A stretch of DNA of 64,000 nt from positions 95,591-159,590 of the forward strand of contig JAGAVJ010000039.1 of assembly GCA_017942005.1 (NCBI GenBank). The letters run 5' to 3'. This DNA is from Clostridia bacterium. Lineage in GTDB: Bacteria > Bacillota > Clostridia > Oscillospirales > CAG-272. The stretch's first letter is position 1. Every line of letters begins with the position of its first letter. Both the position numbers and the translations under genes were made by a program. The notes under the pieces are model-generated. The model worked only from the letters and a program-made list of their open reading frames with translations, was not told the DNA's origin and did no database searches. Positions 13,464 through 33,748 of the stretch are shown in pieces.

Positions 13464-15680
13464 ATGGCACTGTTTGATCACGCACGCTGGCTCTGGGATC
13501 CAGCATACAGCAAAGCGGAAAACGTTTACATGGATTTTGATGAGCACTTTACCGTAAAATCCAAAGCAAAAGCCTATACGATGTATATCAGCGCAGATGC
13601 AAACTACGCAGTATATGTCAACGGCAATCTGATTTCATTCGGTCAGTATGCCGATTATGAAACCTACAAGGTGTATGATACCCTAAATTTGACGGATGCC
13701 ATCAAGGAAGGAGAAAATGACATCCGTGTGACGGTGCACGGCCGCGGACATAATTTCTCCACATACCGCATCGGTCAGCCGGGTGTGATTTATGAGCTTT
13801 ATGCCGATGACAATCTTTTTGTGCTTTCTTCGACTGAAACCAAAATGGCGCTCAATCCGTGCTACAAAAACGGCGCTGTGGAAATCGTGACAGGCCAGCT
13901 TGGCTTTTCTTATCACTATGACGCCACAAAGGAAGGCGCAAACGATGCCGCCTTTAAAAATGCACAGGTTGTGGAAAAGCCAAAGCCTGCATATCCGCGT
14001 CCCATCAAAAAGCTCGTCGTCGGAGAGAATCAGCCTGCGCTCCTCTTTGCGCAGGGACTCTTTACCGACTGCCGCACAGCAAACCTGAACATCGCGCAGA
14101 AATTGCAGTATGCATTCCTTTCCGCAAGAGAACAGTCTCTGCTTTGCGGTCACGGTGAAAATCTGAATTTCACAGGGGATACCGGTATCACCTTCCATTG
14201 CGACCACTGCGACAACAGTGCAGACGGTATGTATCTCACCCTTGATCTTGGCGTGGAATCTGCCGGCGTATTCTCGATTGACATTGACGTTCCAAAGGAA
14301 ACCGAAATTCTCATCGGCTGGGGGGAACATCTCGATGATCTGCGTCCCCGCGCATGGGTCGGCCGCTGCTTTGCACTGCGCTACAAGGCAAAGGCAGGAC
14401 GCAATACCTTTGTGGGACCGTTTCTGCGTCTCGGTCTGCGGTATATGCAGGTGCATATTTACGCAGAACGTGCCACTGTCTATTATGCCGGCATCAAACC
14501 GACCGATTATCCGCTTGACCATACACCATACTTCCAGTGCGCAGACCATCTGCACAATAAGATTTATGAAGTCTGTGTCAGAACCCTTGAAAAATGCATG
14601 CATGAGCATTATGAAGACTGCCCCTGGAGAGAACAGTCTCTGTATTCCATGGACAGCCGCAACCAGATGCTGTGCGGCTATTATACCTTCGGTGAAACGG
14701 AATTTGCAAAGGCGTCTCTCCGCTTAATGGCGCTTTCCCTGCGTGAGGACGGTATGCTGGAGCTTTGCTCCCCGGCTGTGGTTTCCATCACCATTCCATC
14801 GTTTACCGCGATTTTTGTCACACAATTGGAAGAATACCTGCGGTATTCCGGCGATCTTTCCTTTATCGAAGAAATGATGCCAACCGCACGTGCCATCGTA
14901 AAGGCATTCACTGCACAGCTGAACAATGAAGAAAAACTGTTAAAATGCCGTGCAGAGGGCATCTACTGGAACTTCTATGAGTGGCAGTCCGGTCTGGACG
15001 GCGCCATCGGCTCTTCAATGCCTGAGGAGGAACGCACCTACGATGCGCCGATGAACGCGTTCTTCTCCATGGCACTGCGCGCCATTGCAAAGCTGGAAGA
15101 AGCTGTAGGCCAGACAGACGCCGCAGCAGACTATCTTGCGCAGAAGAAAGCGCTTGACGAAAACATGGACCGTCTGTTCTGGGATCGTGAACATCAGGCC
15201 TATGCGACCTATGTCAAACGCGGTGAGCGTTACCACTATGCAGAGCTGACCAATTCGCTGATTGTCTATGCGGATGCATGCCCTGAAAACAAGCAGGACG
15301 CCGTTATGGAAGCGCTGGTTTCCAAAACACTGCTGCCGGTCACACTCAGCCACTCGATCTATAAATACGAAGTGCTGCTCCGCAATCCTGCCAAGTATGC
15401 GCATTGGGTCTTTGACGAGATTGCTGACGTCTGGGGCAAAATGCTGTACAATAATGCAACCACCTTCTATGAAACCGAGGAAGGTTCCCGTGCCTTTGGC
15501 AGTGCAGGTTCTCTCTGCCATGGCTGGTCTGCAATTCCTGCCTATCTGTATTTTGCATATGTGCTTGGTCTGAAGCCAACCGGAAACGGATATGCTTCCT
15601 ATGAAATCAAACCGCTGGATACCGGTATCTACGCAGCAGAAGGTCTTGCAGTCACACCTGCCGGCAACATCAATCTTTAA
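13464..15680 (+). CDS. GH78-like alpha-L-rhamnosidase family glycoside hydrolase
   Basis: 738 aa. Has a bacterial rhamnosidase-type N-terminal beta domain followed by a six-hairpin domain (YEDCPWREQ, WNFYEW, CHGWSAIPAYL). Confidence 0.6.
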   Translation: MALFDHARWLWDPAYSKAENVYMDFDEHFTVKSKAKAYTMYISADANYAVYVNGNLISFGQYADYETYKVYDTLNLTDAIKEGENDIRVTVHGRGHNFSTYRIGQPGVIYELYADDNLFVLSSTETKMALNPCYKNGAVEIVTGQLGFSYHYDATKEGANDAAFKNAQVVEKPKPAYPRPIKKLVVGENQPALLFAQGLFTDCRTANLNIAQKLQYAFLSAREQSLLCGHGENLNFTGDTGITFHCDHCDNSADGMYLTLDLGVESAGVFSIDIDVPKETEILIGWGEHLDDLRPRAWVGRCFALRYKAKAGRNTFVGPFLRLGLRYMQVHIYAERATVYYAGIKPTDYPLDHTPYFQCADHLHNKIYEVCVRTLEKCMHEHYEDCPWREQSLYSMDSRNQMLCGYYTFGETEFAKASLRLMALSLREDGMLELCSPAVVSITIPSFTAIFVTQLEEYLRYSGDLSFIEEMMPTARAIVKAFTAQLNNEEKLLKCRAEGIYWNFYEWQSGLDGAIGSSMPEEERTYDAPMNAFFSMALRAIAKLEEAVGQTDAAADYLAQKKALDENMDRLFWDREHQAYATYVKRGERYHYAELTNSLIVYADACPENKQDAVMEALVSKTLLPVTLSHSIYKYEVLLRNPAKYAHWVFDEIADVWGKMLYNNATTFYETEEGSRAFGSAGSLCHGWSAIPAYLYFAYVLGLKPTGNGYASYEIKPLDTGIYAAEGLAVTPAGNINL

Positions 15681-15691
15681 TTTGAATATTT

Positions 15692-15765
15692 GGGGATTCT
15701 CCCAAAACCCCAATTCAAGGAACTTTTCGAGAAAAGTTCCTTGAAAATCTTCAAAAGCTTTTTTT
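15692..15765 (+). repeat. Family A (hairpin + mirror tract) elements, two units
   Basis: GGGGA-TTC-TCCC-AAAA-CCCC, then AAGGAACTTTTCGAGAAAAGTTCCTT-GAAAA-TCTTC-AAAAGCTT. Lies directly after the GH78-like stop codon. Confidence 0.6.
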
Positions 15766-15787
15766 CGACAAAAGGAGTTCGATTCCT

Positions 15788-17518
15788 ATGCCGTCTACTT
15801 TTATCAACAGTGTCCGTGCCATTTTCGATGCAGAGCGGATTGAAATGGCAGCAGCGATCCCCTTTTCCGCCTGCCGTGTCACCAATCCCGAAAAGCTTGC
15901 ACAGCGCGGGGTAGCAGAATCTCAAAGCGTACTTGTGTTTCTGGTTCCCTATTATGCAGGCGCCGCTTCTATGAACGGTTCGGACAGTGCCCACCGCCCA
16001 AACATCTCCAATTACGCTGCGGCGCGGGATTATCATGTCTATTTCAAAGGATTTTTTGAGCGGGTCTGCGCAAAGCTGCATGAAACGTTTCCGGAATACC
16101 GCTTTTCGGGTTCTGCCGACAACGCACCGATTGATGAACGGCATGCGGCGGTAACCGCCGGACTTGGCATGTACGGCGACAGTGGACTTTTAATCAACGA
16201 AATCTACGGTACCTACGTCTTTATCGGCGAAATTTTTTCCGATATGCCGTGGGAGCAGTATTACGACCATTGCACCACTCCGTTTGAGCCGCAGCATGCC
16301 GTCTGTATGCACTGCGGCGCATGCAAAAAGCACTGCCCGATGTATGATAATCCCTTCGGCGTCAATCGCTGTCTTTCCGAGGTTACACAGACAAAGAACC
16401 TTGAAACACTGGCAGCAGGGTCGGCTGCTTTCTCCGCCCGGGACTGTATTGATCTCATCCGCTATTACGGCTCCGCCTGGGGCTGTGACCGCTGTCAGAC
16501 CTTCTGCCCCTACAACAAGGAAGCACGCATCACGCCCATTCCGTTCTTTTTGGAAGCGCTGACGCCGCATCTGACTGCCGAACAGGTACAAACCATGCCG
16601 GATGCAGTATTTGCGGAACGTGCTTATGCATGGCGCAAAAAATCGACCATTGTGCGCAACCTGGAAATTCTGGAAGCAGATGCTGCAGCCGGTCTTCCCT
16701 GTGCTGCCGCACTGGAGGATATCCTTTCCGCCATCCGGAATGCCGGTGCTTTCATGCGCACTGCTCATGATGTGGAACAGGAAACGGGTTCCATCACAGA
16801 AAAAACGGGAGACGCCAATTTTGTCACCGTCTACGACGTCCGTGTACAGGAAATGCTGATGAAAGCGCTGCAAAACATTCTTCCGCACGCACAGTTTTTT
16901 GCCGAGGAAAAAGAAAATGATCCTGCCATGCTGTCTACCGGGGATACCTTCATCATTGATCCCATCGACGGAACCACCAATTTTATCCATAATTATGGCA
17001 TTTCCGCAATTTCGGTAGGACTTTTGCATAACGGAATTCCGGTCTTCGGCGCCGTGTACAATCCCTATCGGGAAAAGATGTACGAAGCACGGCGCGGCAT
17101 CGGGGCATTCTGCAATGGAAAAAAGATGCATGTCAGCAGCCGTCCGCCCCATAAGGGTGTATTTGCCGTCGGAACCGCTCCCTATTATCGATCCATATTG
17201 GGGGATAACACATTTGCAGTGATGCGCCGATTGTTCGATCTCGGTGCGGACATTCGCCGGCTTGGCTCTGCAGCTCTGGACCTGTGTGCCGTTGCGTCTG
17301 GAGTTGCCGACGGTTATGTGGAGCTGCGCATTTCCCCGTGGGACTTTGCCGCCGGTGCACTGCTTGTCACAGAAGCAGGCGGCGTGATTACAGATACAGA
17401 CGGAAATCCCCTGGATTTCAAACACGCCTGTCCCGTTGGCGTCATTGCCGGAACACCGTCCACACATGTAGCGCTGTTAGAAGCGGTGCATGCGGCATAC
17501 AAAAAAGGAAATATTTAA
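15788..17518 (+). CDS. Fusion protein: QueG-like (DUF1730 / 4Fe-4S) domain + inositol monophosphatase family domain
   Basis: N-terminal half: ARDYH, GLGMYGDSGLLINEIYGTYVFIGEIF, CMHCGACKKHCP. C-terminal half: FFAEEKE, IIDPIDGTTNFIH, WDFAAGALLVTEAGG. It is a single uninterrupted ORF. Confidence 0.7.
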   Translation: MPSTFINSVRAIFDAERIEMAAAIPFSACRVTNPEKLAQRGVAESQSVLVFLVPYYAGAASMNGSDSAHRPNISNYAAARDYHVYFKGFFERVCAKLHETFPEYRFSGSADNAPIDERHAAVTAGLGMYGDSGLLINEIYGTYVFIGEIFSDMPWEQYYDHCTTPFEPQHAVCMHCGACKKHCPMYDNPFGVNRCLSEVTQTKNLETLAAGSAAFSARDCIDLIRYYGSAWGCDRCQTFCPYNKEARITPIPFFLEALTPHLTAEQVQTMPDAVFAERAYAWRKKSTIVRNLEILEADAAAGLPCAAALEDILSAIRNAGAFMRTAHDVEQETGSITEKTGDANFVTVYDVRVQEMLMKALQNILPHAQFFAEEKENDPAMLSTGDTFIIDPIDGTTNFIHNYGISAISVGLLHNGIPVFGAVYNPYREKMYEARRGIGAFCNGKKMHVSSRPPHKGVFAVGTAPYYRSILGDNTFAVMRRLFDLGADIRRLGSAALDLCAVASGVADGYVELRISPWDFAAGALLVTEAGGVITDTDGNPLDFKHACPVGVIAGTPSTHVALLEAVHAAYKKGNI

Positions 17519-17545
17519 ACCAACCACATAAAAGGAGTTATATCT

Positions 17546-18364
17546 ATGCTTGATTTTCTATCTTCTGTTTTAGTATCCTTGGGTGAGCTTGCGATGTCTG
17601 TCGGTATGAAGCTGGTTTATGCGGTCATCCTTCTCATCGTCGGTCTGAAGCTGACCAAATTTATCTGCAAAAAGTTCCAAACATGCAGACTGTATCAGCA
17701 CCTGGAGGCGAGTGTTGCAAAATTTTTAAGCAGCGCAATCCGCATTTCCCTGTATGTGATTGTCTTTATTTCCTTTGCTATGGTGCTCGGTGTTCCTGCC
17801 ACATCCTTCATCACCATTCTCGGTTCTGCCGGTTTGGCGGTCGGTCTTGCACTGCAGGGTTCTCTCTCCAATCTCGCCGGCAGCATTATGATTCTGCTTT
17901 TTAAGCCCTTCAAGGTCGGTGACTTTATTGAAACCGCAGGCTTTTCCGGTGTTGTGGAAGAAATCAACATTTTTTACACCATCCTGAACACCCCGGACAA
18001 CAAGCGCATCACACTGCCAAACGGTTCTGTTTCCAGCAACGTCATCGTAGACTATTCTACCAATGACAACCGTCGTGTCGATTTGACCTTCAGCGTCGCA
18101 TACGGTACGGATATTCAAAAGATGAAGGAACTTCTGCTCAAGGCAGCAGACGACCATACGCTTGTACTGAAAGACCCTGCTCCCGCTGCAATGTTCCAAA
18201 GTCATGGAGACAGCGCCTTAAACTTTGTGCTCCGCGTATGGTGCAGAAGCGGTGACTATTGGACAGTCAACTTTGAACTGCTTGAACAGATTCATGCAGC
18301 AATGCTTGCGGAAAGCATTGAGATTCCTTTCCCGCAGATGGATGTGCATGTCAAGAATACTTAA
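17546..18364 (+). CDS. Small-conductance mechanosensitive channel (MscS family)
   Basis: Three TM helices followed by the MscS beta-domain motif PFKVGDFIE..G..G.V.EI. Confidence 0.85.
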   Translation: MLDFLSSVLVSLGELAMSVGMKLVYAVILLIVGLKLTKFICKKFQTCRLYQHLEASVAKFLSSAIRISLYVIVFISFAMVLGVPATSFITILGSAGLAVGLALQGSLSNLAGSIMILLFKPFKVGDFIETAGFSGVVEEINIFYTILNTPDNKRITLPNGSVSSNVIVDYSTNDNRRVDLTFSVAYGTDIQKMKELLLKAADDHTLVLKDPAPAAMFQSHGDSALNFVLRVWCRSGDYWTVNFELLEQIHAAMLAESIEIPFPQMDVHVKNT

Positions 18365-18424
18365 AATTTCATTCGATATGCCGCGAACAAATAGAAACAA
18401 TTTGTAAACAAATTGTATATATAC

Positions 18425-18452
18425 TTGTATTTTCTGCAATTTGTGGTATAAT
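18425..18452 (+). promoter_or_regulatory. Putative extended -10 promoter
   Basis: TTGTAT, a 16-nt spacer, then TGgTATAAT. Confidence 0.35.
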
Positions 18453-18465
18453 GAATATAAATATA

Positions 18466-18515
18466 AGCGCATTTATGCACGTAATAAAAGAACACCGTGC
18501 GCTGATGCGCTTTTT
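18466..18515 (+). terminator. Terminator-like hairpin in the 5' leader of the decarboxylase beta-subunit gene
   Basis: GCGCAT..GCACG(14 nt)CGTGC..ATGCGC followed by TTTTT. It starts about 15 nt after the putative -10 box. Confidence 0.3.
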
Positions 18516-18602
18516 GCATGCGTTTTCATATTCAAGTGACTGTATCACGCAGACGTTTGAATATGGTGCTGCAATTCCACTCATGAAAGGACCCTTAAAA
18601 TC

Positions 18603-19718
18603 ATGGAAATCCTGTACGAAAACCTGCTCCAAATGGATTGGCGTTATCTCGTCATGTGGGCAATCGGCGGACTGCTGATTTACCTCGCCATCAAAAAGGA
18701 CATGGAACCAACATTACTGCTGCCCATCGGATTCGGAACCATTCTTGTCAATATTCCCAATTCCGGTGCCATCACACAGCCGCAGGCGACAGAACCCGGC
18801 GCACTGACAACCCTGTTTGACGCAGGGATTGCAAACGAGCTGTTCCCGCTGATTTTATTCATCGGCATCGGCGCAATGATAGACTTCGGCCCGCTGCTCT
18901 CCAATCCCAAGCTGATGATCTTCGGCGCAGCCGCACAATTCGGTATCTTTTTCACGCTGTGTCTTGCGTCCATGTTTTTTGATATCAACGATGCAGCTTC
19001 TATCGCCATCATCGGTGCAGCAGACGGTCCGACCTCCATTGTCGTCGCCAATATGCTCAACTCAAACTATTTAGGTCCGATCATGGTAGCGGCGTATTCC
19101 TATATGGCGCTGGTACCGATTATTCAGCCGCCGGTCATCAAGCTGCTCACCACCAAAAAAGAGCGCATGATCCGCATGGAATATGAGGGCAAAGAAGTCT
19201 CCAAAGCGACAAAAATTCTGTTCCCCATCATCATTACCATCGTGGCAGGCATCGTTGCCCCATCCTCTGTTTCTCTTATTGGCTTCCTTATGTTTGGTAA
19301 CCTCATTCGCGAATGCGGTGTGCTCAACTCCCTATCCGACACTGCACAGAAGGTACTTGCAAATCTCGTCACCATTTTTCTTGGCATCACCATTGCTTCC
19401 CAGATGACGGTGGACAAGTTCCTCAATACCGACACGCTTCTGATTCTCGGTCTTGGTCTGTTCGCATTCATCTTTGATACGGCAGGCGGCGTGCTGTTTG
19501 CAAAGTTCCTCAATCTGTTCTTAAAGAAAAAGGTCAATCCAATGATTGGCGCGGCAGGCATTTCCGCATTCCCGATGTCGGGCAGAATCGTACACAAAAT
19601 GGGACTGAAGGAAGATCCGCAAAACTTCCTGCTCATGCATTCCATCGGTGTCAACGTGTCCGGACAGATTGCATCTGTCATCGCGGGCGGTTTGATTTTG
19701 AACTTCTTTATGGCATAA
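18603..19718 (+). CDS. Na+-translocating decarboxylase beta subunit (OadB/GcdB/MmdB family)
   Basis: 371-aa polytopic protein with family-typical segments (IGAADGPT, MIGAAGISAFPMS). Confidence 0.85.
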   Translation: MEILYENLLQMDWRYLVMWAIGGLLIYLAIKKDMEPTLLLPIGFGTILVNIPNSGAITQPQATEPGALTTLFDAGIANELFPLILFIGIGAMIDFGPLLSNPKLMIFGAAAQFGIFFTLCLASMFFDINDAASIAIIGAADGPTSIVVANMLNSNYLGPIMVAAYSYMALVPIIQPPVIKLLTTKKERMIRMEYEGKEVSKATKILFPIIITIVAGIVAPSSVSLIGFLMFGNLIRECGVLNSLSDTAQKVLANLVTIFLGITIASQMTVDKFLNTDTLLILGLGLFAFIFDTAGGVLFAKFLNLFLKKKVNPMIGAAGISAFPMSGRIVHKMGLKEDPQNFLLMHSIGVNVSGQIASVIAGGLILNFFMA

Positions 19719-19736
19719 CGATAGGAGGAGATTCAT

Positions 19737-19892
19737 ATGTTCATGCGCATCAATCCGGGCGCGTTTGTCGATAATCTGTATTATATGGGTGTCGGAATGC
19801 TGTCCATTTTTATCGTCATCGGTGTCATCATCCTTGCAACCCTCATTCTCGACCGTGGAATGAAAGCGCTGGAAAAAAACAAAAAAATGTAA
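19737..19892 (+). CDS. OadG-like small membrane subunit (51 aa, below track cutoff)
   Basis: ATG lies 7 nt after AGGAGG. A single TM helix (YYMGVGMLSIFIVIGVIILATLIL) is followed by a basic tail. Position after the beta subunit is typical. Confidence 0.6.
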   Translation: MFMRINPGAFVDNLYYMGVGMLSIFIVIGVIILATLILDRGMKALEKNKKM

Positions 19893-19968
19893 GTTCGACA
19901 GATTTATGTATGGGGAAAACTTTTTTGAAAAAAAGTTTTCCCCAAACCTCTTTCAAAAAACTTTAAAC
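19890..19968 (+). repeat. Family A element (TIR-like GTAAGTTCGAC + hairpin + mirror tract)
   Basis: GGGGAAAACTTTTTTGAAAAAAAGTTTTCCCC-AAA-CCTCTTTC-AAAAAACTTTAAAC. It overlaps the stop codon of the oadG-like gene. Confidence 0.8.
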
Positions 19969-20030
19969 CGGGTAAACTGACAAAAAATTCGTGTGTTTTT
20001 GTTGGTGAAACGTTTTTGAGGAGGCGTTTC

Positions 20031-20064
20031 GGGCTGCTGCAAGTTTTCAACTTGCAGCAGCCCC
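20031..20064. terminator. Family C palindrome / bidirectional terminator
   Basis: GGGCTGCTGCAAGTTTTCAACTTGCAGCAGCCCC followed by TTTTG. Lies between convergent genes. Confidence 0.7.
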
Positions 20065-20076
20065 TTTTGAATCTTC

Positions 20077-20973
20077 TCATATTTTGGATTCATTCATATC
20101 TGAACCATCTGCGGATGAATCAGTTTCATTCACATTATCATCCATCGAGGTATCATCCGTCCCATTTTTCTCCGGCGTTGTCACAATCACTTCAATTCCC
20201 TGCTCTATGAAAGCGGATAAGTCTGCCTCTGCGATATTGTCGTCTGTAATCAGGACATGCAGACGGTTTGCCGGACAAATCTTTACAATGGAATCAAACC
20301 CGATCTTCTCCGTCGGATACAATCCGACCGCTTTTCGCGATGCGTTTAGTACCGCATTCCAGAACGGAATCGCGCCGCTTTTCTGAATCGACAAACCAAA
20401 ATCAGGAGAGATAGCGGCAGAGGTCAAAAAACAGGTGTCAAAGCGCAGTTTTCCGATCATTTCTACGGCAAAGGCGTCATAGCAGTTCCCTTTGCCGTCC
20501 ATTTCCCCGCCAATCAGGATCACCGACACATTCGGTTTGGAACGCAGTTCCTCCGCCATGACAATGGAATTGGTCACAACACGCAAATGCAGATGATCGG
20601 GAATTCGCTGCGCCATAAAATATCCGACGGTCGCAGCCGTGATAAAAATCACCTCGCCGTCGTGCAGCATCGACAGCGCCTGTTCTGCAACTGCAAGATA
20701 GTTTGGCTTGATCTCTCCAAAATCCCGGCACGTGACGCCCGCCGGCTTCCCGGCAGCAACATATCTCAGCGGAAGTGCACCGCCATGTGTGCGCTTCAAC
20801 TTTTTCTGCTCCTCCAGCATGCGAAGATCCCGTTTGGCAGTGTCATACCCAACTTTGAATTTTAATTGTATCAGTGATGTGCTGATACTCCCCCTCTCCT
20901 CTAATAATTGCAGAATTTTTTCGTGGCGTTCTTCAAGCAGCATTGATGGTATCATCCTTTCTTCACAGTACAT
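20077..20973 (-). CDS. DeoR/GlpR family transcriptional regulator with acidic C-terminal tail
   Basis: N-terminal HTH (RHEKILQLLEERGSISTSLIQLKFKVGYDTAKRDLRMLEE) plus a DeoR C-terminal sensor domain. About 35 extra acidic residues at the C-terminus. The start may be an internal Met. Confidence 0.8.
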   Translation of the reverse strand: MYCEERMIPSMLLEERHEKILQLLEERGSISTSLIQLKFKVGYDTAKRDLRMLEEQKKLKRTHGGALPLRYVAAGKPAGVTCRDFGEIKPNYLAVAEQALSMLHDGEVIFITAATVGYFMAQRIPDHLHLRVVTNSIVMAEELRSKPNVSVILIGGEMDGKGNCYDAFAVEMIGKLRFDTCFLTSAAISPDFGLSIQKSGAIPFWNAVLNASRKAVGLYPTEKIGFDSIVKICPANRLHVLITDDNIAEADLSAFIEQGIEVIVTTPEKNGTDDTSMDDNVNETDSSADGSDMNESKI

Positions 20974-21314
20974 ATGATGTACCGTATTTTCACGGTTATT
21001 CCCGTTTATGCCTATATAATAACATATTTATGTCTGTTTGTCAAGTGGATTCCGTGAAAAGAAAGAGGTTTTCGTGAATATTCAGGCATTGACGTTCCAT
21101 ACCGATATCGATAGAACCGTATATTTTGAAATCTAATAAACTTTTCAAAATTCATTCATCTTTTCTTTATATTTATCCTGTATAATAAGATATTATCTAA
21201 AATTCAGCGGTACCATTCCGCAGAAAGGACTCCATTTTTCTGCCGCCCAATTTGCAGGACAATAAGTCTGAAAAATAAATTTTTCAGGAGAAACCATTTT
21301 AATGATTTCTCGTA

Positions 21315-21405
21315 CCGTGATTTTGTGACTTAACCGCCTGCGGGCGGTCACAACTCCACAATGAAAGGAGATAACTTTCACTTTCGTGAAAGTTATGGTC
21401 ATAAC
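21315..21405 (+). repeat. Family B leader repeat, 3' part
   Basis: CCGTGATTTTGTGAC[TTAACCGCCTGCGGGCG]GTCACAACTCCACAATGAAAGGAG-ATAACTTTCAC/GTGAAAGTTAT-GGTCATAAC. Confidence 0.8.
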
Positions 21406-23017
21406 TATAAAAAATATGACAAACAAGAAAAAGAATGACGATCCGATCCACTCAAGGATGCGGAAATATGTCAACCGGCACATGAGCAATCTTTTCAAAC
21501 GCACAGTGTATATTCTCCTGTTTGCAACCATACAAATTGCTCTGCTCGTGGTAAGTTTTACCTATCTCGGAAACCTGACGCCGTATTTCTGGACATTCTG
21601 CATGCTCATTTCCTTGATTCAAGCCATGCATATTTTAAATAAAAACAACAACCCCGCCTATAAAATCGCATGGCTGATTCCCATTTTGGTCGCGCCAATC
21701 TTTGGGGGGCTATTGTATTTGATGTTCGGCTCCAAGCGTGTCAATAAACGTCTGACCACGATCACAAACGATATTCAGGAAAAATATGCGGAATTTTCTC
21801 CTTGCGTTGTCCCCTCCATTGAAAAAAAGATCGCAGAAGAAGCCCCGCGCAATGTTGCTTTGCAGTCCTCCTACATTTCAAAGGCATCCGGCTGTCTTCC
21901 CTACGGCAGCACGCAGACCAAATATTTTCCGTCCGGGGAAGAACTGTTTCCGGTCATGTATGAAGCGCTGAAACAGGCAAAACAGTATATTTTCATCGAA
22001 TATTTTATCATTGAAGAAGGACTTTTCTGGGAATCGATCCTCGATATCCTCACAGAAAAGGTAAAAGAAGGCGTGGAAGTGCGTGTCATGTACGACGACT
22101 TCGGGTCTATGCTGACGCTTCCCCTCAATTATGATAAAATGCTGCGGGAACGCGGCATCAAGTCCCATGTATTCAATCCGTTTAATACCGTACTGCATCC
22201 CCGCCCCAATAACCGTGACCACAGAAAAATTACAGTCATCGACGGAAAAACAGCTTTTGTCGGCGGTATCAATTTAGCGGACGAATACATCAATACCTTT
22301 GAAAAGTATGGATATTGGAAGGACACCGCCCTGCAAATGACCGGTGATGCTGCTTTTGGCTGTACCATACAGTTTTTGTGCGTATGGGATGCGGATACCC
22401 ATGAAAAAACGGATTTTACAAAGTATACGCCGCGCCCATCCGATAAAGAAGAACCCGCCCAGTCCACTCTTAGCATCGTACAGCCATATACCGATATTCC
22501 AATGGACAGTGAGCAGGTCGGGGAATCGGTGTATTTCCAGATGGTCACACGTGCGGAAAAGTATATTTACATCACGACCCCCTATTTGATCATCGACTAT
22601 GAAATGCAGACCGCGCTGCAAATCGCCGCAAAAAGCGGTGTGGATGTCCGCATTATCACCCCGCACATTCCCGATAAAAAAATGGTATTTTTCTTAACGC
22701 GTTCCTACTATAAACCGCTGATGGACGCAGGTGTGAAAATTTACGAATTCACCCCCGGATTTATCCATGCAAAGTCCATGGTGTCCGACGACCGCTTTGC
22801 CGTAGTCGGTTCTATCAACCTCGACTACCGTTCTCTGTATTTACACCTTGAGAATGCCGTATGGATGTACAATACGGAAGTCATTACCGACATCCGCAAC
22901 GATTTTCTTGCAACGCAGGAAAAAAGTCAGCTTGTCACAGAGGAGCTGCTCGGCCGCCTGACCCTGCCAAAACGGATGTGGCTGTCTATCCTCCGCACCT
23001 TCTCGCCGTTATTGTAG
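21395..23017 (+). CDS. cls: Cardiolipin synthase
   Basis: Two PLD HKD motifs (HRKITVIDGKTAFVGGINL and HAKSMVSDDRFAVVGSINLD) and N-terminal TM helices. Start is ambiguous (GTG 21386, ATG 21395, ATG 21416). Confidence 0.9.
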   Translation: MVITIKNMTNKKKNDDPIHSRMRKYVNRHMSNLFKRTVYILLFATIQIALLVVSFTYLGNLTPYFWTFCMLISLIQAMHILNKNNNPAYKIAWLIPILVAPIFGGLLYLMFGSKRVNKRLTTITNDIQEKYAEFSPCVVPSIEKKIAEEAPRNVALQSSYISKASGCLPYGSTQTKYFPSGEELFPVMYEALKQAKQYIFIEYFIIEEGLFWESILDILTEKVKEGVEVRVMYDDFGSMLTLPLNYDKMLRERGIKSHVFNPFNTVLHPRPNNRDHRKITVIDGKTAFVGGINLADEYINTFEKYGYWKDTALQMTGDAAFGCTIQFLCVWDADTHEKTDFTKYTPRPSDKEEPAQSTLSIVQPYTDIPMDSEQVGESVYFQMVTRAEKYIYITTPYLIIDYEMQTALQIAAKSGVDVRIITPHIPDKKMVFFLTRSYYKPLMDAGVKIYEFTPGFIHAKSMVSDDRFAVVGSINLDYRSLYLHLENAVWMYNTEVITDIRNDFLATQEKSQLVTEELLGRLTLPKRMWLSILRTFSPLL

Positions 23018-23080
23018 TTTTATGAGGAGATGCTTTTTGAAAAAAGCACCTCCTCAAACTCCTCCGCAAAAACTTTCATA
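23018..23080 (+). repeat. Family A element (GAGGAG-type arms)
   Basis: TTTATG-GAGGAGATGCTTTTTGAAAAAAGCACCTCCTC-AAA-CTCCTCC-GCAAAAACTTTCATA. Lies immediately after the cls stop codon. Confidence 0.8.
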
Positions 23081-23130
23081 TAAAGTTATTTGAATGGGGT
23101 TTCTGGCTGTACGGCGTATCCTTATTACAG

Positions 23131-23190
23131 TTACCGAAAAAAACAGGAAGGAACCGTTTTCATACGTGTTCTTCCTGTTTTTTTCGGTAA
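23131..23190. terminator. Bidirectional terminator, perfect 20-bp inverted repeat
   Basis: TTACCGAAAAAAACAGGAAG(20 nt)CTTCCTGTTTTTTTCGGTAA, between convergent cls and the AraC-family gene. Confidence 0.7.
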
Positions 23191-23256
23191 TGGGCAGCAC
23201 TGCTCCGTCATTCAACAGAAAGGACATGCCTTCCGTTACTGATAAAGGCGGTTATG

Positions 23257-24195
23257 TTACAAATAAATATCGCCTTTGCTGTCCGCTGCCGACTTAAAGT
23301 ATTCCGACGGCGAAACGCCGACCAACTTACGAAACGAACGCGAAAACCGGCTGTAATCCGAAAAACCGACGCGTTCTGCAATTTCAGACATATTGAGCGT
23401 TCCGTCAAAATACTGGATCGTTGAACGGCTGATACGGTAGCTTGTTAGATAGTTGGAAAAGCTCACGCCAAAGCAATGCTTGAACAGGGTACAGAAATAG
23501 CTCTTGTTATAGCCGAACTGCGCACTGATTTCGGCTGTGGACAGCGGACGCATATAGTTTTCATCCAAAAACCGCGCGACCTTGATCATGAAGGCATAAT
23601 CCCGCGACGGATATTGCTTCTCCGCATTGGTATCCAAAAAGCCAACACAGCACAAGAGCTCTGACATCAATACACACAAAAGCGACATCTGCTTGAATTC
23701 TGCGGCGGAATCAAGAGACTCCTTGTGCTGTTTATTTTCACAGATATCAGTCAAAATCTTACCAAGCGCCATCGCAGTGCTGCCGGATCGGATGAGCGTT
23801 GGAAAACGCAGACTGCCGCGCTGCAAATCTTCCATCTGTTTTATTGCCGTACTCGAAAGTCCTGTAAAGCTGGTAAAGTGAAATGCAGCAAAGCAGTAGT
23901 CGACAATGTCTGCGGGATCGAACTTCGCCGCGTGCAGTTCATACGGATGTATGATCAAAAGGTCTCCTGCATCCATCTGATACGCAGTACAGTTGATTTC
24001 CACATGCAGATGTCCCCTGTACAGATATAAAAATTCCGCATCCGAGTGATGATGCAGATGCGTGCATGTCATCATCCCGTTTTGAAGAATATACCGGAAC
24101 CAGGCAGGGGCTGTATGGTTTGCAATATCAAAATAATAGCGTTCCGCCCGTACAACTGACATCCGCGCACCGGATGTATCATACGTTTCAATCAT
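23257..24195 (-). CDS. AraC family transcriptional regulator (cupin + HTH)
   Basis: C-terminal AraC HTH (FGYNKSYFCTLFKHCFGVSFSNYL, VGFSDYSRFSRSFRKLVGVSPSEY). The start is ambiguous; an upstream in-frame GTG behind GGAGGGAG would translate the palindrome at 24210-24242. Confidence 0.8.
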   Translation of the reverse strand: MIETYDTSGARMSVVRAERYYFDIANHTAPAWFRYILQNGMMTCTHLHHHSDAEFLYLYRGHLHVEINCTAYQMDAGDLLIIHPYELHAAKFDPADIVDYCFAAFHFTSFTGLSSTAIKQMEDLQRGSLRFPTLIRSGSTAMALGKILTDICENKQHKESLDSAAEFKQMSLLCVLMSELLCCVGFLDTNAEKQYPSRDYAFMIKVARFLDENYMRPLSTAEISAQFGYNKSYFCTLFKHCFGVSFSNYLTSYRISRSTIQYFDGTLNMSEIAERVGFSDYSRFSRSFRKLVGVSPSEYFKSAADSKGDIYL

Positions 24196-24209
24196 AATTA
24201 TGCGTACCA

Positions 24210-24242
24210 GGACTGTTGCAAGTTGAAAACATGCAACAGCCC
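24210..24242. repeat. Family C palindrome located in the 5' region of the AraC gene
   Basis: GGACTGTTGCAAGTTGAAAACATGCAACAGCCC (one mismatch in the stem). Confidence 0.7.
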
Positions 24243-24434
24243 GTTTCACGGTCTCCCTCCAGCTTGATTGATTCAAATTATATCATACATCCTTGCCGCT
24301 GTCAAGCAATCTATGCAAAAAAACAAAAAACCACGCCATGTAAAAACAAATATATGCCATTGTAATTCACAGAAAAGTATGATATAATCTAAAATATATG
24401 AAACAACCATGGAATACGATAGAAAGGAATTCAA

Positions 24435-24532
24435 GTTTGAAAGATAAATCTTTCAAACCGTGTTTTGTGACTTACGTCACAATTCCACATTAGAAAGGAA
24501 AACTTCGCTTACGCGAAGTTATGGTGGTAAAG
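24435..24532 (+). repeat. Family B leader repeat, 3' part
   Basis: GTTTGAAAGATAAATCTTTCAAAC-CGTGTTTTGTGACTTACGTCACAATTCCACATTAGAAAGGAAA-ACTTCGCTTACGCGAAGT-TATGGTGGTAAAG. Nearly identical to the reverse complement of 7606-7683. Confidence 0.85.
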
Positions 24533-26002
24533 ATGAAACGTTTTTCCTGCATTTTACTGACAGTATTGCTGATGTGCGCTTCCTGCGGAGAAGCTGCAAA
24601 AAGCGATACAACGGACACCGCGCAAACCGGTACCAACACAGATACGGAGCCTGCCGCAACAGAAGCACCGATTCCGGATCATTTAGATGAATTGGGTGAA
24701 AAGGATTTTGAAGGCAGAGTGTTCACCATTCTTGATGCAAACGACCACCCCGATATGCATGTCAACATGCCGGGGACAGAAGAAAACGGCGACATCATCA
24801 ACGATGCGCTGTACCAGCGTGATGCTGCCATTGAAGAACGTTACAACATTGATCTGCAATATATCCAAATAGAAGGTGCAAGCACCGGTACAACCAAGCT
24901 GAAAAATGCAGCCCTGACCGATGACAGTACCTATTCCATCTGTATTTCCACTCTGCTTGGCGGAACGCTCGGCACCATTGCCCTGGAAGGCGTACTTGCC
25001 AATCTGCTTGAGGTACCGTACCTGTCACTTGATCAGAACTGGTGGAGCAGCCTGATGTATGAAAGCCTTCGCTTTGACAACAAAATGTATTACACCACAG
25101 GCGATATCTCTCCCACCATGTACCAGATGCCGTCTTGCCTTTACTTAAACAAATCCCTTGCAGAAAACTACGATATTCAGGCAGATTTCCCTCAGCTGGT
25201 GCGTGACGGAAAATGGACATGGGACGAAATGATTTCCGCCTGCAAAAATTTGACGGTCGATGTCAACGGAGACAACAAAATGGACACCTGGGACGACTTC
25301 TTCGGCTTTGTACACAACGAGATGAGCAGCCTTGTCACAAATGCATATGTTGTCAGCGCCGGAATTGATCTTTCCACCATTTCCGAGGACGGCAGTCAGA
25401 TCAAAGTTGATCTGCTCAACGAACACACAAGCAATGCCATTGATAAATTCAAGGAGCTGGTCACACCCAATATCAAAATTAGAGAATTCAATGATATCAT
25501 CACCAAAACCTTTGAAGAGGACCGCGCCCTGTTTTTGCACCACTATGTGGAAAGCGCTTCCAACTATCTGCGCGATATGAAGAGCGACTATCTGATTCTG
25601 CCGCTGCCAAAGTATGATGAAGCACAGGAAAGCTACCGTTCCTTCGCCAACGCATGGGCAGATGCATTTGTCGCAATTCCGATTACAAGCGATCCTGAAT
25701 TCACCGGGTTCATTACGGAAGCGCTCGGCTACTATTCCTATAAAAACGTCCGTCCGCAGACCTATGAAATCATGTATAAGCAGAAGACGACGCGCGATGA
25801 GGACAGTGCAGAAATGCTTGATGTCATCTTCAATACCGTGTATGTGGACTTCAACTGTATCTATGACTTTGGCGGAACCGCATCGGTGCTCTGCAACGTC
25901 ATCAACGGAAAAGGAGAGCTTGCATCGTCTCTCACCAAAATTGAATCGAAAATCGATACCGCTCTTGAAAAATTCATCACAGGCTGGAAGGCAGAAAAAT
26001 AA
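24521..26002 (+). CDS. LplA-like extracellular solute-binding lipoprotein (paralog 2 of 5)
   Basis: Lipobox in MKRFSCILLTVLLMCASC, reading from the ATG at 24533. Contains the motif LILPLPKYDEAQESY. ATGGTG at 24521 is in frame. Confidence 0.7.
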   Translation: MVVKMKRFSCILLTVLLMCASCGEAAKSDTTDTAQTGTNTDTEPAATEAPIPDHLDELGEKDFEGRVFTILDANDHPDMHVNMPGTEENGDIINDALYQRDAAIEERYNIDLQYIQIEGASTGTTKLKNAALTDDSTYSICISTLLGGTLGTIALEGVLANLLEVPYLSLDQNWWSSLMYESLRFDNKMYYTTGDISPTMYQMPSCLYLNKSLAENYDIQADFPQLVRDGKWTWDEMISACKNLTVDVNGDNKMDTWDDFFGFVHNEMSSLVTNAYVVSAGIDLSTISEDGSQIKVDLLNEHTSNAIDKFKELVTPNIKIREFNDIITKTFEEDRALFLHHYVESASNYLRDMKSDYLILPLPKYDEAQESYRSFANAWADAFVAIPITSDPEFTGFITEALGYYSYKNVRPQTYEIMYKQKTTRDEDSAEMLDVIFNTVYVDFNCIYDFGGTASVLCNVINGKGELASSLTKIESKIDTALEKFITGWKAEK

Positions 26003-26043
26003 ATTCTGCAAAAAAAGCAACGCGTCAGAATATCATGAAAACA

Positions 26044-26087
26044 GGGCTGCCGCAAGTTTTCAACTTGCAGCAGCCCCTCTTTTATTT
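26044..26087 (+). terminator. Family C palindrome / intrinsic terminator
   Basis: GGGCTGCCGCAAGTTTTCAACTTGCAGCAGCCCC followed by TCTTTTATTT. Confidence 0.75.
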
Positions 26088-26096
26088 GGATAGGAA

Positions 26097-27302: not shown

Positions 27303-27538
27303 TTGTAAAGTCCTCCGAAACTATAATGATGTCTATAACTTGGATGGAAGCAAACGTGATTTTTCTTCCAGCCTGAACATGTATTTTCAGGTTTCCACGA
27401 AATTCATAGACTGTAACATACTTTATTATTATACAGCATCTCCGTCTAAAATGCAAGAGATTCCGGCAAATTTCGCATAAAATTTTTCGCATGGAACGCC
27501 GCTGTGCCCTCGTTTTCGCTGCACGGCAGCTGAAAACG

Positions 27539-28546: not shown

Positions 28547-29142
28547 GCAATACCCTCCTGTCCATGACCGGAGGGGTCGTTTTGCACATTCTGCTGCGCC
28601 CCCGGTACTTCTATCGTTCCTTCGTCCTCCGTTTTCTCTTCCGCCAAAGGGTGTACGGGAGGTGCAAACTTCTTGCGCATCTCTACGGTTGTCCCGCGGC
28701 CGGGCGCACTTTTGACACGTACCGCATCCATGAAATTCTGCATGATAGCAAATCCCATACCGCTTCTTTCACCGCTCATATCTGTGGTATACAACGGCTC
28801 CATTGCCTGCGGAATATCACCGATGCCGCAGCCGCGATCACGGATGATAATTTTGATGCTTCTGTCATCGTACAGCGTCGTCAGTATGTAAACGGTGCGC
28901 TGCCTGTCATCTTTCGCCTGGGTATCGCCCTTGTAGGCATGCACGACAACATTTGTCACCGCTTCCGATACCGCACAGCGCACATCGGCAAGATCATCGA
29001 CCGTGATATCAAGCTGTGCTGCCATAGCGCAGATCATAGCGCGGGACAGACGTTCATTTTCTGACACCGCATAAAATTCTGTTTTCATCTGATTGAGGAT
29101 ATGCTTTTTTTTACGTTTGCTTCCATTTTCCTTGATCGCCAT
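28543..29142 (-). CDS. spoIIAB: Anti-sigma F factor SpoIIAB (serine kinase) with N- and C-terminal extensions
   Basis: HATPase_c motifs (EAVTNVVVHAY, IIIRDRGCGI, ERSGMGFAIM). 199 aa, against roughly 146 aa for canonical SpoIIAB as I recall. Confidence 0.85.
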   Translation of the reverse strand: MAIKENGSKRKKKHILNQMKTEFYAVSENERLSRAMICAMAAQLDITVDDLADVRCAVSEAVTNVVVHAYKGDTQAKDDRQRTVYILTTLYDDRSIKIIIRDRGCGIGDIPQAMEPLYTTDMSGERSGMGFAIMQNFMDAVRVKSAPGRGTTVEMRKKFAPPVHPLAEEKTEDEGTIEVPGAQQNVQNDPSGHGQEGIA

Positions 29143-29145
29143 CCC

Positions 29146-33726: not shown

Positions 33727-33748
33727 GCGTACTCCTTTTCTAATCTTT

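Follow-up and report, generated by a model that had tools for sequence, protein, structure and literature searches.

The 64-kb window, which is the whole stretch of DNA analysed here, contains eight full copies of a repeat, one truncated copy and three mini versions, all of them intergenic, giving 12 units at a density of about one unit per 5–8 kb (Table 1). The repeat unit is 45–60 bases long and is composed, in order, of a variable 5' arm, a constant C-T5-6-G-A6-7-G apex, a complementary 3' arm, a linker of 1–5 nt, a third tract that is the mirror of the 3' arm, and a constant C-A5-6-C-TTT tail that closes the unit. All eleven sites listed in the original prediction carry the sequences assigned to them at the positions assigned. 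The parts of the unit that it described were likewise found, but the tail had been overlooked.

Table 1. Units of the repeat family and associated features in the 64-kb window.
Feature	Position	Strand	Remarks
Copy 1, whole unit	19908-19968	+	19 nt past stop of 51-aa gene that follows OAD-beta gene; upstream of terminator 20031-20063
Copy 1, purine 5' arm GGGGAAAAC	19912-19920	+	
Copy 1, constant apex T6-G-A7	19921-19934	+	predicted fold: A-U pairs capped by UGAA loop
Copy 1, Watson-Crick pyrimidine 3' arm GTTTTCCCC	19935-19943	+	
Copy 1, AAA linker	19944-19946	+	
Copy 1, third tract CCTCTTTC, mirror of 3' arm	19947-19954	+	follows AAA linker
Copy 1, conserved tail AAAAAACTTT	19955-19964	+	A-run as long as apex T-run
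Copy 2, arm type of copy 1	34898-34951	-	divergent region between pth and HIGH_NTase1, upstream of pth
Copy 3, decayed, arm type of copy 1	46141-46192	+	21 nt past stop of SLH/NAGPA gene; upstream of terminator 46233-46272
Copy 4, arm GAGGAGATGC	23024-23076	+	6 nt past stop of PLD-type gene; upstream of bidirectional terminator 23133-23188
Copy 5, arm type of copy 4	61343-61396	-	18 nt past stop of CBM9 gene; terminator at 61195-61150
Copy 6, arm GGGGGAC	33857-33900	-	15 nt past stop of pth
Copy 7, variant apex TTTT-CGAG-AAAA, matching tail AAAAGCTT	33771-33817	+	antisense to pth and mfd
Copy 8, variant apex and tail as in copy 7	15714-15761	+	between GH gene and next gene
Mini hairpin and mirror tract, GGGG..TCCC AAAA CCCC	15692-15711	+	directly upstream of copy 8; 11 nt past a stop
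Mini hairpin and mirror tract, GAGGC GTT GCCTC AAA CTCT	33749-33769	+	directly upstream of copy 7; antisense to flanking genes
Lone mini hairpin, GGAGA..TCTCC AAA CCTAT	39293-39317	+	8 nt past a stop; weak family member when taken alone
Truncated copy, ACGTAAGTTCGAT leader, 5' arm and T-run fused straight to tail (CTTTTTTTCAAAAAACTT)	61217-61270	+	deletion between the two A-runs
Canonical GC-rich terminator	20031-20063	+	downstream of copy 1; context, outside the repeat

A pattern specifying only the apex and tail matched five copies in the window, compared with 0.00 expected from 100 shuffles, and an nhmmer search of the window with the eight aligned copies returned the same eight and the truncated copy. 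Seven of the eight full copies are predicted to form RNA hairpins of -18 to -25 kcal/mol (z -3.4 to -5.2), with a weaker hairpin in copy 3 (-9.3 kcal/mol, z -1.5). The third tract and tail are unpaired in every fold predicted by ViennaRNA, which does not model triples and in this respect shows only that the third tract is left free. Within each arm type of the window, the differences between copies amount to decay, one deletion derivative included. Of the short versions in the original prediction, the two at 15692-15711 and 33749-33769 correspond to a mini hairpin-and-mirror module that immediately precedes about 19 copies elsewhere, in other genomes; the one at 39293-39317 is weak on its own. 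A generic search of the window for 5-bp hairpins followed by a mirror was unspecific, with 14 mirror, 11 direct and 17 reverse-complement arrangements found.

Seven of the window copies (five full, two mini) start 6–21 nt past a co-oriented stop codon, one more than the six originally counted; copy 2, copy 7 and the mini version at 33749 are not so placed. The copies had also been predicted to lie upstream of a GC-rich terminator, and this was found for four of the seven, with canonical terminators 45–165 nt downstream. The copies do not themselves resemble intrinsic terminators, in which a GC-rich hairpin leads directly into a U-tract, as the hairpin of the unit is followed by a pyrimidine tract, an A-run and only CTTT. 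A terminator scan of positions 15500-35400, which spans six of the eight full copies, listed none of them.

The family extends well beyond this genome. The same apex-and-tail pattern, with the arms and third tract left free, matches at least 120 loci in Clostridia, Desulfobacterota, Acidocella, Lentisphaerae, Planctomycetota and others, and arms of at least 5 bp are present in 118 of 141 pattern matches. Most matches in viral contigs have no arms, indicating that the pattern itself does not generate them; with about ten true copies among what are mostly chance matches, the family is not mainly phage-borne. The AT-only apex is unaltered in Acidocella at 64–67% GC. Units occur singly, in tandem, as inverted pairs around a central hairpin, or in composites, and they stop exactly at the tail. 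In one arm subfamily (loci L020, L023 and L114) the polarity is reversed, a pyrimidine 5' arm being accompanied by a purine third tract. The units are high-copy, intergenic and modular, and they are lineage-restricted yet present in several phyla. Carriers that can be cultivated include Acidocella facilis ATCC 35904, Halodesulfovibrio spirochaetisodalis JC271 and 'Bacterium D16-76'. Neither the window nor 16 loci gave an Rfam match at the gathering threshold, and relaxing E to 10 yielded only chance miRNA-like hairpins. No description of this repeat family was found in the literature on triplex and REP elements or on the apex sequence.

According to the original prediction, the 5' arm, 3' arm and third tract change together between copies. 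Because the window contains only four arm types, this three-segment covariation was tested on 111 distinct copies from other genomes, found without constraint on arms or third tract. These copies have an anchored mirror score of 3.03, compared with 1.40 ± 0.11 under cross-locus permutation (z 14.7) and 1.44 ± 0.10 under within-tract shuffling (z 16.6), in agreement with the prediction. With one representative per distinct inner arm (n=65) the mirror z was again 14.7, and it was 12.9 for the 50 arms other than a simple G-run/A-run. The third tract is a mirror rather than a direct repeat by 59 to 7. The check proposed with the prediction, that the 5' arm should predict the third tract beyond composition-matched shuffles, had the same outcome: the two are parallel complements in 73.1% of cells versus 54.2 ± 1.2 in shuffles, none of 500 shuffles reaching 73.1%, and the value drops to 57–65% when the register is slid by one column. 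At each of the three middle levels 61–65 of 67 copies match (91–97%), with 20–26 double changes, and the complementarity of the hairpin arms is kept through 176 double changes. The arms CTTAGAAA and ATACTTTT, which are not Shine-Dalgarno-like, still follow the mirror rule. The three segments covary as a hairpin with a further strand complementary in parallel to its 5' arm, and their changing together between copies is good comparative evidence that the triple-stranded fold is under selection.

A second, independent covariation links the apex with the tail. The length of the tail A-run equals that of the apex T-run in 114 of 118 copies, and the first loop base covaries with the base after the tail A-run. 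C's on the 5' strand beside the apex are paralleled by C in the third strand, as predicted for an uninterrupted pyrimidine third strand, and in copies with variant loops the tail fits the parallel complement of the 5' strand better than a mirror of the loop. Together, the covariation and the run-length match fit an intramolecular triple helix that would switch strands at the apex. An alternative in which the tail pairs with the apex T-run by Watson-Crick rules, as a pseudoknot or alternative hairpin, was also considered; it explains one flank per loop class but not the covariation of the first loop base with the base after the tail A-run.

Placement relative to genes was assessed across the family from crude ORF calls. 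Copies are overrepresented between convergent genes (24 of 60, versus 17% of regions), and 10 of 60 lie in divergent promoter regions, as does copy 2 of the window. Orientation relative to the nearest gene end is unbiased family-wide (38 to 32, p = 0.55); the same holds between co-directional genes (11–13 sense, 15–17 antisense) and relative to GC skew over 8 kb, a crude proxy for replication strand (46 to 53). Sense copies lie nearer to the upstream stop (median 36 nt, many at 3–22) than antisense copies (median 124 nt), which hints at an orientation-specific constraint. The neighbours of the copies are unrelated housekeeping genes, and no recurrent gene family, transposases included, was found in the flanks of the family loci. 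No target-site duplication or tail-like target was found in the flanks of the units, the upstream tail-like matches being neighbouring tandem copies only. In a search for orthologous copies with compensatory change, contigs of the same strain were 99.98–100% identical, and the next relatives, at no more than 74% amino-acid identity, lack the element. No copy was found in ~80 kb from the nearest relatives or in 80 unselected pth loci (317 kb in total), which include the locus with a 74%-identical Pth; the gap orthologous to the copy 8 site is empty in L127 and L128 (9 nt vs 107 nt). This patchy distribution looks insertional.

The closest precedent for the family is the intrastrand-triplex repeat called BoxC, PIT or TMECO, of E. 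coli and other Proteobacteria (Hoyne et al. 2000; Holder et al. 2015, PMC4666352). Like TMECO, the present family is a dispersed intergenic repeat with three consecutive single-strand blocks able to form an intrastrand triplex, it has no tie to the orientation or function of flanking genes and lies at variable loci, and each class on one strand entails its partner class on the opposite strand. TMECO has a single invariant G/C-rich sequence, CCCTCNCCC N3-6 GGGNGAGGG N3 GGGNGAGGG, of class II/IV and with short loops. Here, by contrast, the arms are variable and covary three ways in class III/I block order, the hairpin has a constant T-run/A-run apex of 12–16 nt that the third strand mirrors, and the hosts are chiefly Clostridia, with several further phyla represented. 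Under the scheme of Holder et al. 2015, the given strand of the unit belongs to class III and the opposite strand to class I. Since potential intrastrand triplex repeats were already described as BoxC (= PIT, TMECO) and as ITxF classes I–IV (PMC4666352), the original statement that no bacterial element of this type was known does not hold, though the TMECO consensus taken from that paper has no match on either strand of the window. The published descriptions are of repeats in DNA rather than of elements in 3' UTRs. BoxC/PIT/TMECO elements form an intrastrand triplex as single-stranded DNA in vitro and mark variable loci, but neither double-stranded TMECO DNA nor living cells gave a detectable triplex (PMC4666352). 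As in ITxF sequences, purine, Watson-Crick pyrimidine and Hoogsteen blocks follow each other on one strand with the polarity right for canonical triples, which bears out the strand geometry for an intramolecular triplex put forward in the original prediction. The ITxF limits (homopurine stems of 6–15 nt, loops of 1–6 nt) would probably overlook units of this family.

Several other systems share part of this architecture. The family conforms to the general description of REP/BIME/REPIN sequences as short, high-copy extragenic palindromes beyond gene ends, in either orientation, occurring as single units, inverted pairs or mosaics, and it is similarly patchy among related genomes. REP/BIME/REPIN elements are present in hundreds of copies per genome. 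Unlike REP sequences, which are near-identical within a genome, the units described here vary greatly in their arms even in a single genome, and they also possess a mirror strand and a conserved tail; no GTAG or CGTC foot tag is visible in the aligned copies, and no RAYT gene was found among the locus neighbours. Single units also differ from MITEs in lacking terminal inverted repeats and flanking duplications, inverted ends being found only in the Acidocella composite (AAAAGTTTTT...AAAAACTTTT). As in H-DNA, the 3' arm and third tract form a mirror repeat. H-DNA needs only a homopurine-homopyrimidine duplex mirror repeat, while here an inverted repeat makes the duplex within one strand, and across the loop the tail keeps to the 5' strand instead of being a mirror of the loop. 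Under the H-DNA or alternate-strand rule the third base equals the 3'-strand base, in parallel T.A-T and C+.G-C and antiparallel A.A-T and G.G-C triples; designed triplexes in which the third strand switches where purines change strand are said to have been made by Beal & Dervan and by Jayasena & Johnston (1992). The single-strand transpososome of IS608 contains base triples made by the bases that follow the hairpin foot on its 3' side, and the distal cleavage site is recognised by DNA-DNA pairing, not by protein (PMC3201880). The present units would resemble IS608 ends in having a single-strand structure with triple-forming bases immediately 3' of the hairpin foot. IS608 has just two triples and a 4-nt guide, and its left and right ends flank tnpA/tnpB with a replication strand bias, none of which was seen in this family. 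A further partial parallel lies in RNA triple helices, those of the ENE/MALAT1 type as well as riboswitch and pseudoknot triplexes. Elements of the ENE/MALAT1 type protect RNA from decay through cis major-groove pyrimidine-motif triples (U.A-U, C+.G-C) near the 3' end (PMC13541005). In these, two U-rich internal-loop strands clamp an A-rich 3' tail; the units described here are unlike them in being a plain hairpin, predicted as a continuous stem free of internal loops, with G-rich arms, a downstream pyrimidine strand and an orientation not tied to transcription.

The reading that we prefer, and in which we place about half of our confidence, is that the family represents dispersed REP/BoxC-like intergenic repeats, each unit a potential intrastrand triplex. 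A single-stranded unit would fold as a hairpin, with the downstream strand turning back at the foot into the major groove to give C+.G-C and T.A-T triples along the purine arm. Past the constant C, the third strand would switch to A.A-T triples on the apex A-run, in which it lies antiparallel to the purine strand. The copying or maintaining machinery may recognise the invariant AT-only apex and the tail; if REP/RAYT and IS200/IS605 ends are a guide, it is most likely an enzyme whose substrate is folded single-stranded DNA. The fold would then be selected in the propagating lineages, with single insertions decaying later. Copies are proposed to pile up just beyond gene ends because insertions there are tolerated, and as a result those in the source genome would be transcribed within 3' UTRs, where any effect on mRNA would be secondary. 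Against this reading stand the lack of a transposase or cognate protein among the locus neighbours, the lack of a target-site duplication, and the unbiased orientation of the family, as IS200/IS605-type elements are biased to one replication strand. In addition, runs of four to six C+ triples are unfavourable at neutral pH; the linker often pairs with the 5' flank, which sets the longest hairpin against the full triplex at the foot; and the tail prolongs the parallel complement across the loop, a feature not accounted for by a hairpin with a simple third strand. A bolder proposal, which we think somewhat more likely wrong than right, is that these are natural cross-phylum elements that depend for propagation or function on an intramolecular triplex of ~8–15 triples, with a switch from pyrimidine to purine motif between arm and apex, beyond which the third strand would read the loop.

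The original prediction was of a 3'-UTR RNA element, a transcribed hairpin with a pyrimidine-motif major-groove triplex. Such an element could block 3'-5' exonucleases or be sensed by terminating ribosomes, and would in this way stabilise the mRNA upstream or tune it. REP elements have this effect in E. coli, and ENE/MALAT1 triple helices have it in eukaryotes and viruses. The seven window copies placed just past co-oriented stops, four of them with canonical terminators, would suit such an element, as would the stable predicted RNA hairpins with a free third tract and the short family-wide gap to the stop, which contrasts with the longer distance from the other end of the unit to the stop of a converging gene. 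A pyrimidine third strand is also the type of triplex that forms in RNA (PMC4666352). As a general statement the 3'-UTR reading is nevertheless not supported, given the unbiased orientation of the family and its patchy distribution, with close relatives that have the same genes lacking the repeat; copies also lie in divergent promoter regions, no Rfam family matched, and an apex invariant across phyla would be superfluous for merely blocking an exonuclease. The conserved tail would moreover imply A.A-U triples, which to our knowledge are not known to be stable in RNA, and we consider this explanation unlikely. Another candidate, which we rate as quite unlikely, is a DNA structural element with a host function, an intrastrand or H-DNA-like triplex arising transiently where DNA is negatively supercoiled or where replication or transcription leaves it single-stranded. 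Such a structure could stall polymerases, take up supercoils, offer a site to nucleoid proteins or gyrase, or favour rearrangement nearby. Roles of this kind have been proposed for TMECO and REP/BIME. Orientation-independent placement fits a DNA-level role because both strands have a triplex-competent fold, and the copies are enriched between convergent genes, the regions that bear most of the positive supercoiling and of the conflicts of replication with transcription. In vitro, DNA polymerase is blocked by PIT elements, TMECO loci show unusual variability (PMC4666352), and the truncated copy is itself a deletion derivative between two A-runs. A host function should persist in relatives, however, and sister lineages do without the elements; no TMECO triplex was detected in vivo; and plain H-DNA predicts a tail that mirrors the loop, a poorer fit to the variant loops than the parallel complement of the 5' strand.

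The invariance of the apex and tail across phyla, with the rest of the unit variable, could instead reflect a protein that binds the palindromic C-T5-G-A6-G apex and the A5-C-TTT tail, for example through A-tract geometry, leaving the relation of arms to third tract as a by-product. The apexes of copies 7 and 8 do resemble an AT-rich palindromic operator. A duplex-binding protein cannot use a mirror repeat, though, and would give the third tract no reason to track arms of arbitrary sequence, as it does, or the hairpin to keep its complementarity through so many double changes; such a binding site without a triplex is in our view very improbable. Low-complexity composition has some initial appeal, as many arms are a G-run followed by an A-run and symmetric arms (CTCCTC; copies 4, 5 and 6) make a mirror identical to a direct repeat, so that purine and pyrimidine runs could merely resemble mirrors. 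The permutation, shuffle and slide controls refute this, given the high z of the non-simple arms, the excess of mirror over direct repeats and the far lower values in slid registers, and we give chance practically no weight. An ATG does precede the arm in copies 1, 2, 4 and 5, which can be read as short peptides, as a chance or small-ORF reading would have it; copy 3 stops after five codons, and no ATG or Shine-Dalgarno sequence is conserved across the family. An anti-Shine-Dalgarno mimic (CCUCC) or a sequestered Shine-Dalgarno would suit the G-rich arms only, AT-rich and reversed-polarity arms following the same rule. TTGAAA as a -35 promoter box has no well-spaced -10 box on either strand, and a scan of 15500-35400 lists no promoter within the units. 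Many arms lack the G or C runs of a G-quadruplex or i-motif.

Selection for triple helices in bacterial genomes has been a standing question since the BoxC/PIT elements were noticed. As BoxC/PIT is one fixed sequence, comparison between its copies is uninformative; the present family offers more than 100 copies with differing arms in which hairpin and third strand change together. The three-way covariation and the match of T-run and A-run lengths bring the triplex question within reach of a few oligonucleotides and compensatory mutants. If the bolder proposal of a required long triplex were true, this would be the first long bacterial triplex backed by three-way covariation, with a fold that could arise either while the element is mobilised as single-stranded DNA or in the 3' UTRs of mRNA, and would imply novel machinery recognising a triplex-capped hairpin with an invariant T5-G-A6 apex. 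An enzyme that reads the invariant apex and tail on the folded strand would represent a new kind of structure-specific nucleic-acid recognition. The hosts include gut and rumen Clostridia, Desulfobacterota and Acidocella, and an abundant, widespread and unannotated family bears on how intergenic regions, 3' UTRs and assembly breakpoints are read in many metagenome-assembled genomes.

Some minor features of the alignment may also be noted. Wobble pairs in the hairpin (G:T 14, T:G 13, A:C 21, C:A 1) give no strand assignment, and at non-Watson-Crick levels the third base agrees with the 3' arm in 23 cases but with the 5' arm in just 10, a difference that is suggestive only. Three extensions of the mirror rule were not seen in the original prediction, namely the tail A-run that mirrors the apex A-run, the subfamily of reversed polarity and the C-by-C match at the apex.

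The proposed repeat architecture was confirmed in the window, and the sequences stated for the sites other than copy 1 are all present. Copy 1 reads GTAT GGGGAAAAC TTTTTTGAAAAAAA GTTTTCCCC AAA CCTCTTTC AAAAAACTTT AAAC, in the order 5' arm, T-run/A-run apex, 3' arm, linker, third tract and tail. The parts named in the original prediction were found, but alignment of the eight full copies indicated that the unit is longer than noted, with a constant tail (C-A5-6-C-TTT) 3' of the third tract. A pattern of apex and tail only, CTTTTT N1-3 AAAAAAG N13-25 AAAAACTTT, with arms and third tract unconstrained, occurs five times in the window against 0.00 expected, and nhmmer recovered the eight full copies plus one truncated copy. 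In the latter, a deletion derivative, the tail follows directly on the 5' arm and T-run (CTTTTTTTCAAAAAACTT), which would fit slippage between a unit's two A-runs. RNA folding predicted perfect or near-perfect hairpins capped by a four-base loop for 7 of 8 full copies (-18 to -25 kcal/mol, z -3.4 to -5.2); the decayed copy 3 folds less stably (-9.3 kcal/mol, z -1.5). In none of the predicted folds of the full copies does the third tract or tail take part in base pairing. Copies 1, 3 and 5 and the truncated copy are each preceded on the 5' side by a ACGTRAGTTCGAY motif, which at copy 1 overlaps the last codon and stop codon of the upstream gene; 3' of copy 8, the GGAG of this motif is the ribosome-binding site of the gene at 15788. 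With the motif included, the repeat unit of the subfamily in this genome may measure about 95 nt.

Positions of repeat units and associated features
Feature	Position (strand)
Copy 1	19908-19968 (+)
Copy 2	34898-34951 (-)
Copy 3	46141-46192 (+)
Copy 4	23024-23076 (+)
Copy 5	61343-61396 (-)
Copy 6	33857-33900 (-)
Copy 7	33771-33817 (+)
Copy 8	15714-15761 (+)
Truncated copy	61217-61270 (+)
Minis (short hairpin plus mirror tract) behind stop codons	15692; 39293
Terminators following units	20031-20063 (+); 23133-23188; 46233-46272; 61195-61150
ACGTRAGTTCGAY motif	19887-19899; 46119-46131; 61412-61400 (-); 61223-61235; 15770-15782
Second repeat family	7600-7790 (-); 29650-29770 (+)
Hairpins of second repeat family	7740-7775; 29674-29711
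74-nt repeat	7605-7678 (-); 24458-24531 (+)
Near-identical terminator hairpins	20031-20063 (+); 26043-26077 (-); about 7700 (-)
spoIIAA-spoIIAB-sigF-type operon	27539-29523 (-)
Reversed-polarity members, other genomes (element-strand offsets)	L020 1504; L023 3891; L109; L114
Tandem array, other genome	L017 1650-1950
Acidocella composites, other genomes	L006 2670-2805; L101 6950-7150; L113 about 3250-3340

When the pattern was used to scan species-representative genomes, at least 120 stretches matched. Among the matches listed, the majority are gut or rumen Clostridia and Oscillospiraceae MAGs, accompanied by MAGs of Planctomycetota, Verrucomicrobiota, Acidobacteriota and Thermodesulfobacteriota, a 1.9-Mb Desulfovibrionaceae contig, a 258-kb Lentisphaerae contig and two isolates (Acidocella facilis ATCC 35904 and Halodesulfovibrio spirochaetisodalis JC271). 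The matched loci range from 43% to 67% GC, and the AT-only apex and the tail are unaltered in Acidocella at 64-67% GC. The apex is flanked by complementary arms of 5 bp or more in 118 of 141 parsed matches. Viral contigs carry the same pattern mostly without arms; the pattern alone therefore does not generate hairpins.

The claim that the third tract tracks the purine arm held against shuffles, cross-locus swaps and slides. Across 111 distinct copies, the anchored alignment of the third tract to the mirror of the 3' arm scored 3.03, compared with 1.40 +/- 0.11 when third tracts were swapped between loci (z 14.7) and 1.44 +/- 0.10 when each was shuffled (z 16.6), and the mirror was preferred over a direct repeat in 59 versus 7 copies. 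The signal persisted with a single copy per distinct inner arm (z 14.7, n=65) and for arms other than a simple G-run/A-run (z 12.9, n=50). In an ungapped 67-row alignment, with the third tract reversed so that parallel pairs nest, the hairpin is 95.9% paired with 176 double changes. The third tract is complementary to the 5' arm in 73.1% (shuffles 54.2 +/- 1.2, with 0 of 500 reaching the observed value), dropping to 57-65% on a one-column slide; its covariation score is 0.565, versus 0.265 shuffled and 0.33-0.37 slid, and the three middle levels fit in 61-65 of the 67 copies. A second relation, independent of that between arm and third tract, is that the tail A-run equals the apex T-run in length in 114 of 118 copies (rho 0.955; 5/5 in 85 copies and 6/6 in 29).

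In the best register, where level 1 is the constant C ahead of the tail A-run, C lies on G:C and T on A:T along the arm, and a T in the 5' strand of the outer stem corresponds to A in the third strand. The general rule is that the third base equals the 3'-strand base, which yields T.A-T and C+.G-C triples with the third strand parallel to the purine strand, and A.A-T and G.G-C triples with it antiparallel. These are the four canonical triples, each with its correct polarity here, and by textbook triplex rules the fold would therefore be an alternate-strand intramolecular triplex. A subfamily of reversed polarity, whose 5' arm is pyrimidine and whose 3' arm and third tract are purine, also obeys the mirror rule (e.g., ATACTTTT / AAAAGTAT / CAAAAG in L020, a locus from another genome). 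Opposite apex-adjacent C's of the 5' strand, the third strand has C rather than G, which is what an unbroken pyrimidine third strand would favour. The comparative evidence strongly supports the predicted triple-helix geometry. Across the loop and on into TTT, the tail still complements the 5' strand in parallel, varying with the loop (A4-5-GC for loops starting with CG, A5-TTTTT for loops AT or AAC), and the linker frequently pairs with the 5' flank; neither feature is readily explained.

The 3'-UTR placement originally proposed stands for much of the window. In seven cases (copies 1, 3, 4, 5 and 6 and two minis) the unit starts 6-21 nt past a co-oriented stop codon, with a canonical terminator further downstream in four; copy 2 is found in a divergent promoter region, and an antisense orientation is seen for copy 7, its mini hairpin and the truncated copy. 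In the wider set, however, crude ORF calling with three length cut-offs gave no orientation bias for units between co-directional genes (sense 11-13, antisense 15-17), nor was there bias by nearest gene end (sense 38, antisense 32, p = 0.55) or GC skew (46 versus 53). The sole asymmetry is distance, with a median of 36 nt from co-oriented stop codon to unit 5' end and 124 nt from the converging gene's stop codon to unit 3' end. An RNA function in the 3' UTR is thus unsupported as a property of the whole family, and an RNA stabiliser appears an unlikely explanation. Convergent regions are over-represented (24 of 60 copies versus 17% of intergenic regions); the window units adjoin unrelated housekeeping genes, and no protein family recurs among element neighbours. 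A host function at the DNA level seems improbable, and a protein site without a triplex slightly more so.

The most likely account, at about even odds, is that the family is a REP- or BoxC-like, probably mobile repeat in which selection sees the folded single strand, which would be a hairpin with a third strand bearing the invariant apex and tail. REP/BIME-type dispersed repeats behave in the same way, with patchy presence, varied arrangements and decay. In the nearest relatives found, whose orthologue of a 576-aa protein is 60-66% identical, about 80 kb contains no copy, and the GH-to-next-gene gap, 107 nt here with a mini hairpin and copy 8, is 9 nt at the orthologous sites in L127 and L128. 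No copy occurs in 80 unselected metagenome pth loci (317 kb), including one with a 74%-identical Pth. Units stand alone, in tandem or as inverted pairs flanking a central hairpin (Acidocella, L028), and in one Ruminococcus MAG the repeated unit stops exactly at the tail. Comparison within arm types shows only decay, as in copy 1 versus copy 2, in copy 3 and in the deletion derivative. The L017 array has a 125-bp period, each repeat comprising a mini hairpin (GGGGCGTCGCCCCACACCCCA), a main unit and a GC hairpin. In the Acidocella composites (~140 bp) a GC-rich hairpin lies at the centre, between an inverted unit and a forward unit; the outer ends AAAAGTTTTT...AAAAACTTTT form inverted repeats, a MITE- or BIME-like arrangement.

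The original prediction knew of no described bacterial 3' UTR element of this type, but the potential intrastrand triplex repeat is already known as a concept: such repeats (BoxC, PIT or TMECO) and four motif classes have been described (Hoyne et al. (2000); Holder et al. (2015), PMC4666352, whose introduction also covers triplex rules). TMECO forms a triplex in vitro as single-stranded DNA, with none detected in duplex DNA or in vivo; it acts neither as a promoter nor as a terminator, and the loci that it marks are variable (PMC4666352). In that classification the present units are class III/I. They differ from the TMECO consensus, and with so long an apex they would probably be missed by a search within the ITxF limits. 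Rfam has no family for the element, and the apex sequence in this context had no match in the literature searched. Hairpin-foot base triples have a precedent in the single-strand transpososome at IS608 ends (PMC3201880), and the bacterial RNA triple helices known are those of riboswitches, pseudoknots and group II introns.

The window derives from a Clostridia genome known from metagenomes only, whose same-strain contigs are 99.98-100% identical; its spoIIAA-spoIIAB-sigF-type operon (STAS, HATPase_c_2 and sigma-70 domains) identifies the host as an endospore-forming Firmicutes member. An unrelated second repeat family, without a mirror tract, consists of a shared GGGCTGTCGCATTAACATGC.CCATCCTATAAAATTCGCCTTTTCGC, a hairpin with a T4-5/A4-5 apex, and AAAACGCCGAATTCGGATCACTTCGTGATCCC(C)GGGCTGT. 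A 74-nt repeat (93% identity; CCGTGTTTTGTGACTTACGTCACAATTCCACATTAGA.AGGAAAACTTCGCTT.CGCGAAGT), whose plus-strand copy ends slightly beyond the ATG of the ORF at 24521, may be a common leader or operator. Near-identical terminator hairpins (GGGCTGCTGCAAGTT...AACTTGCAGCAGCCC) occur at different genes, so terminator modules also seem to have been copied around this genome.
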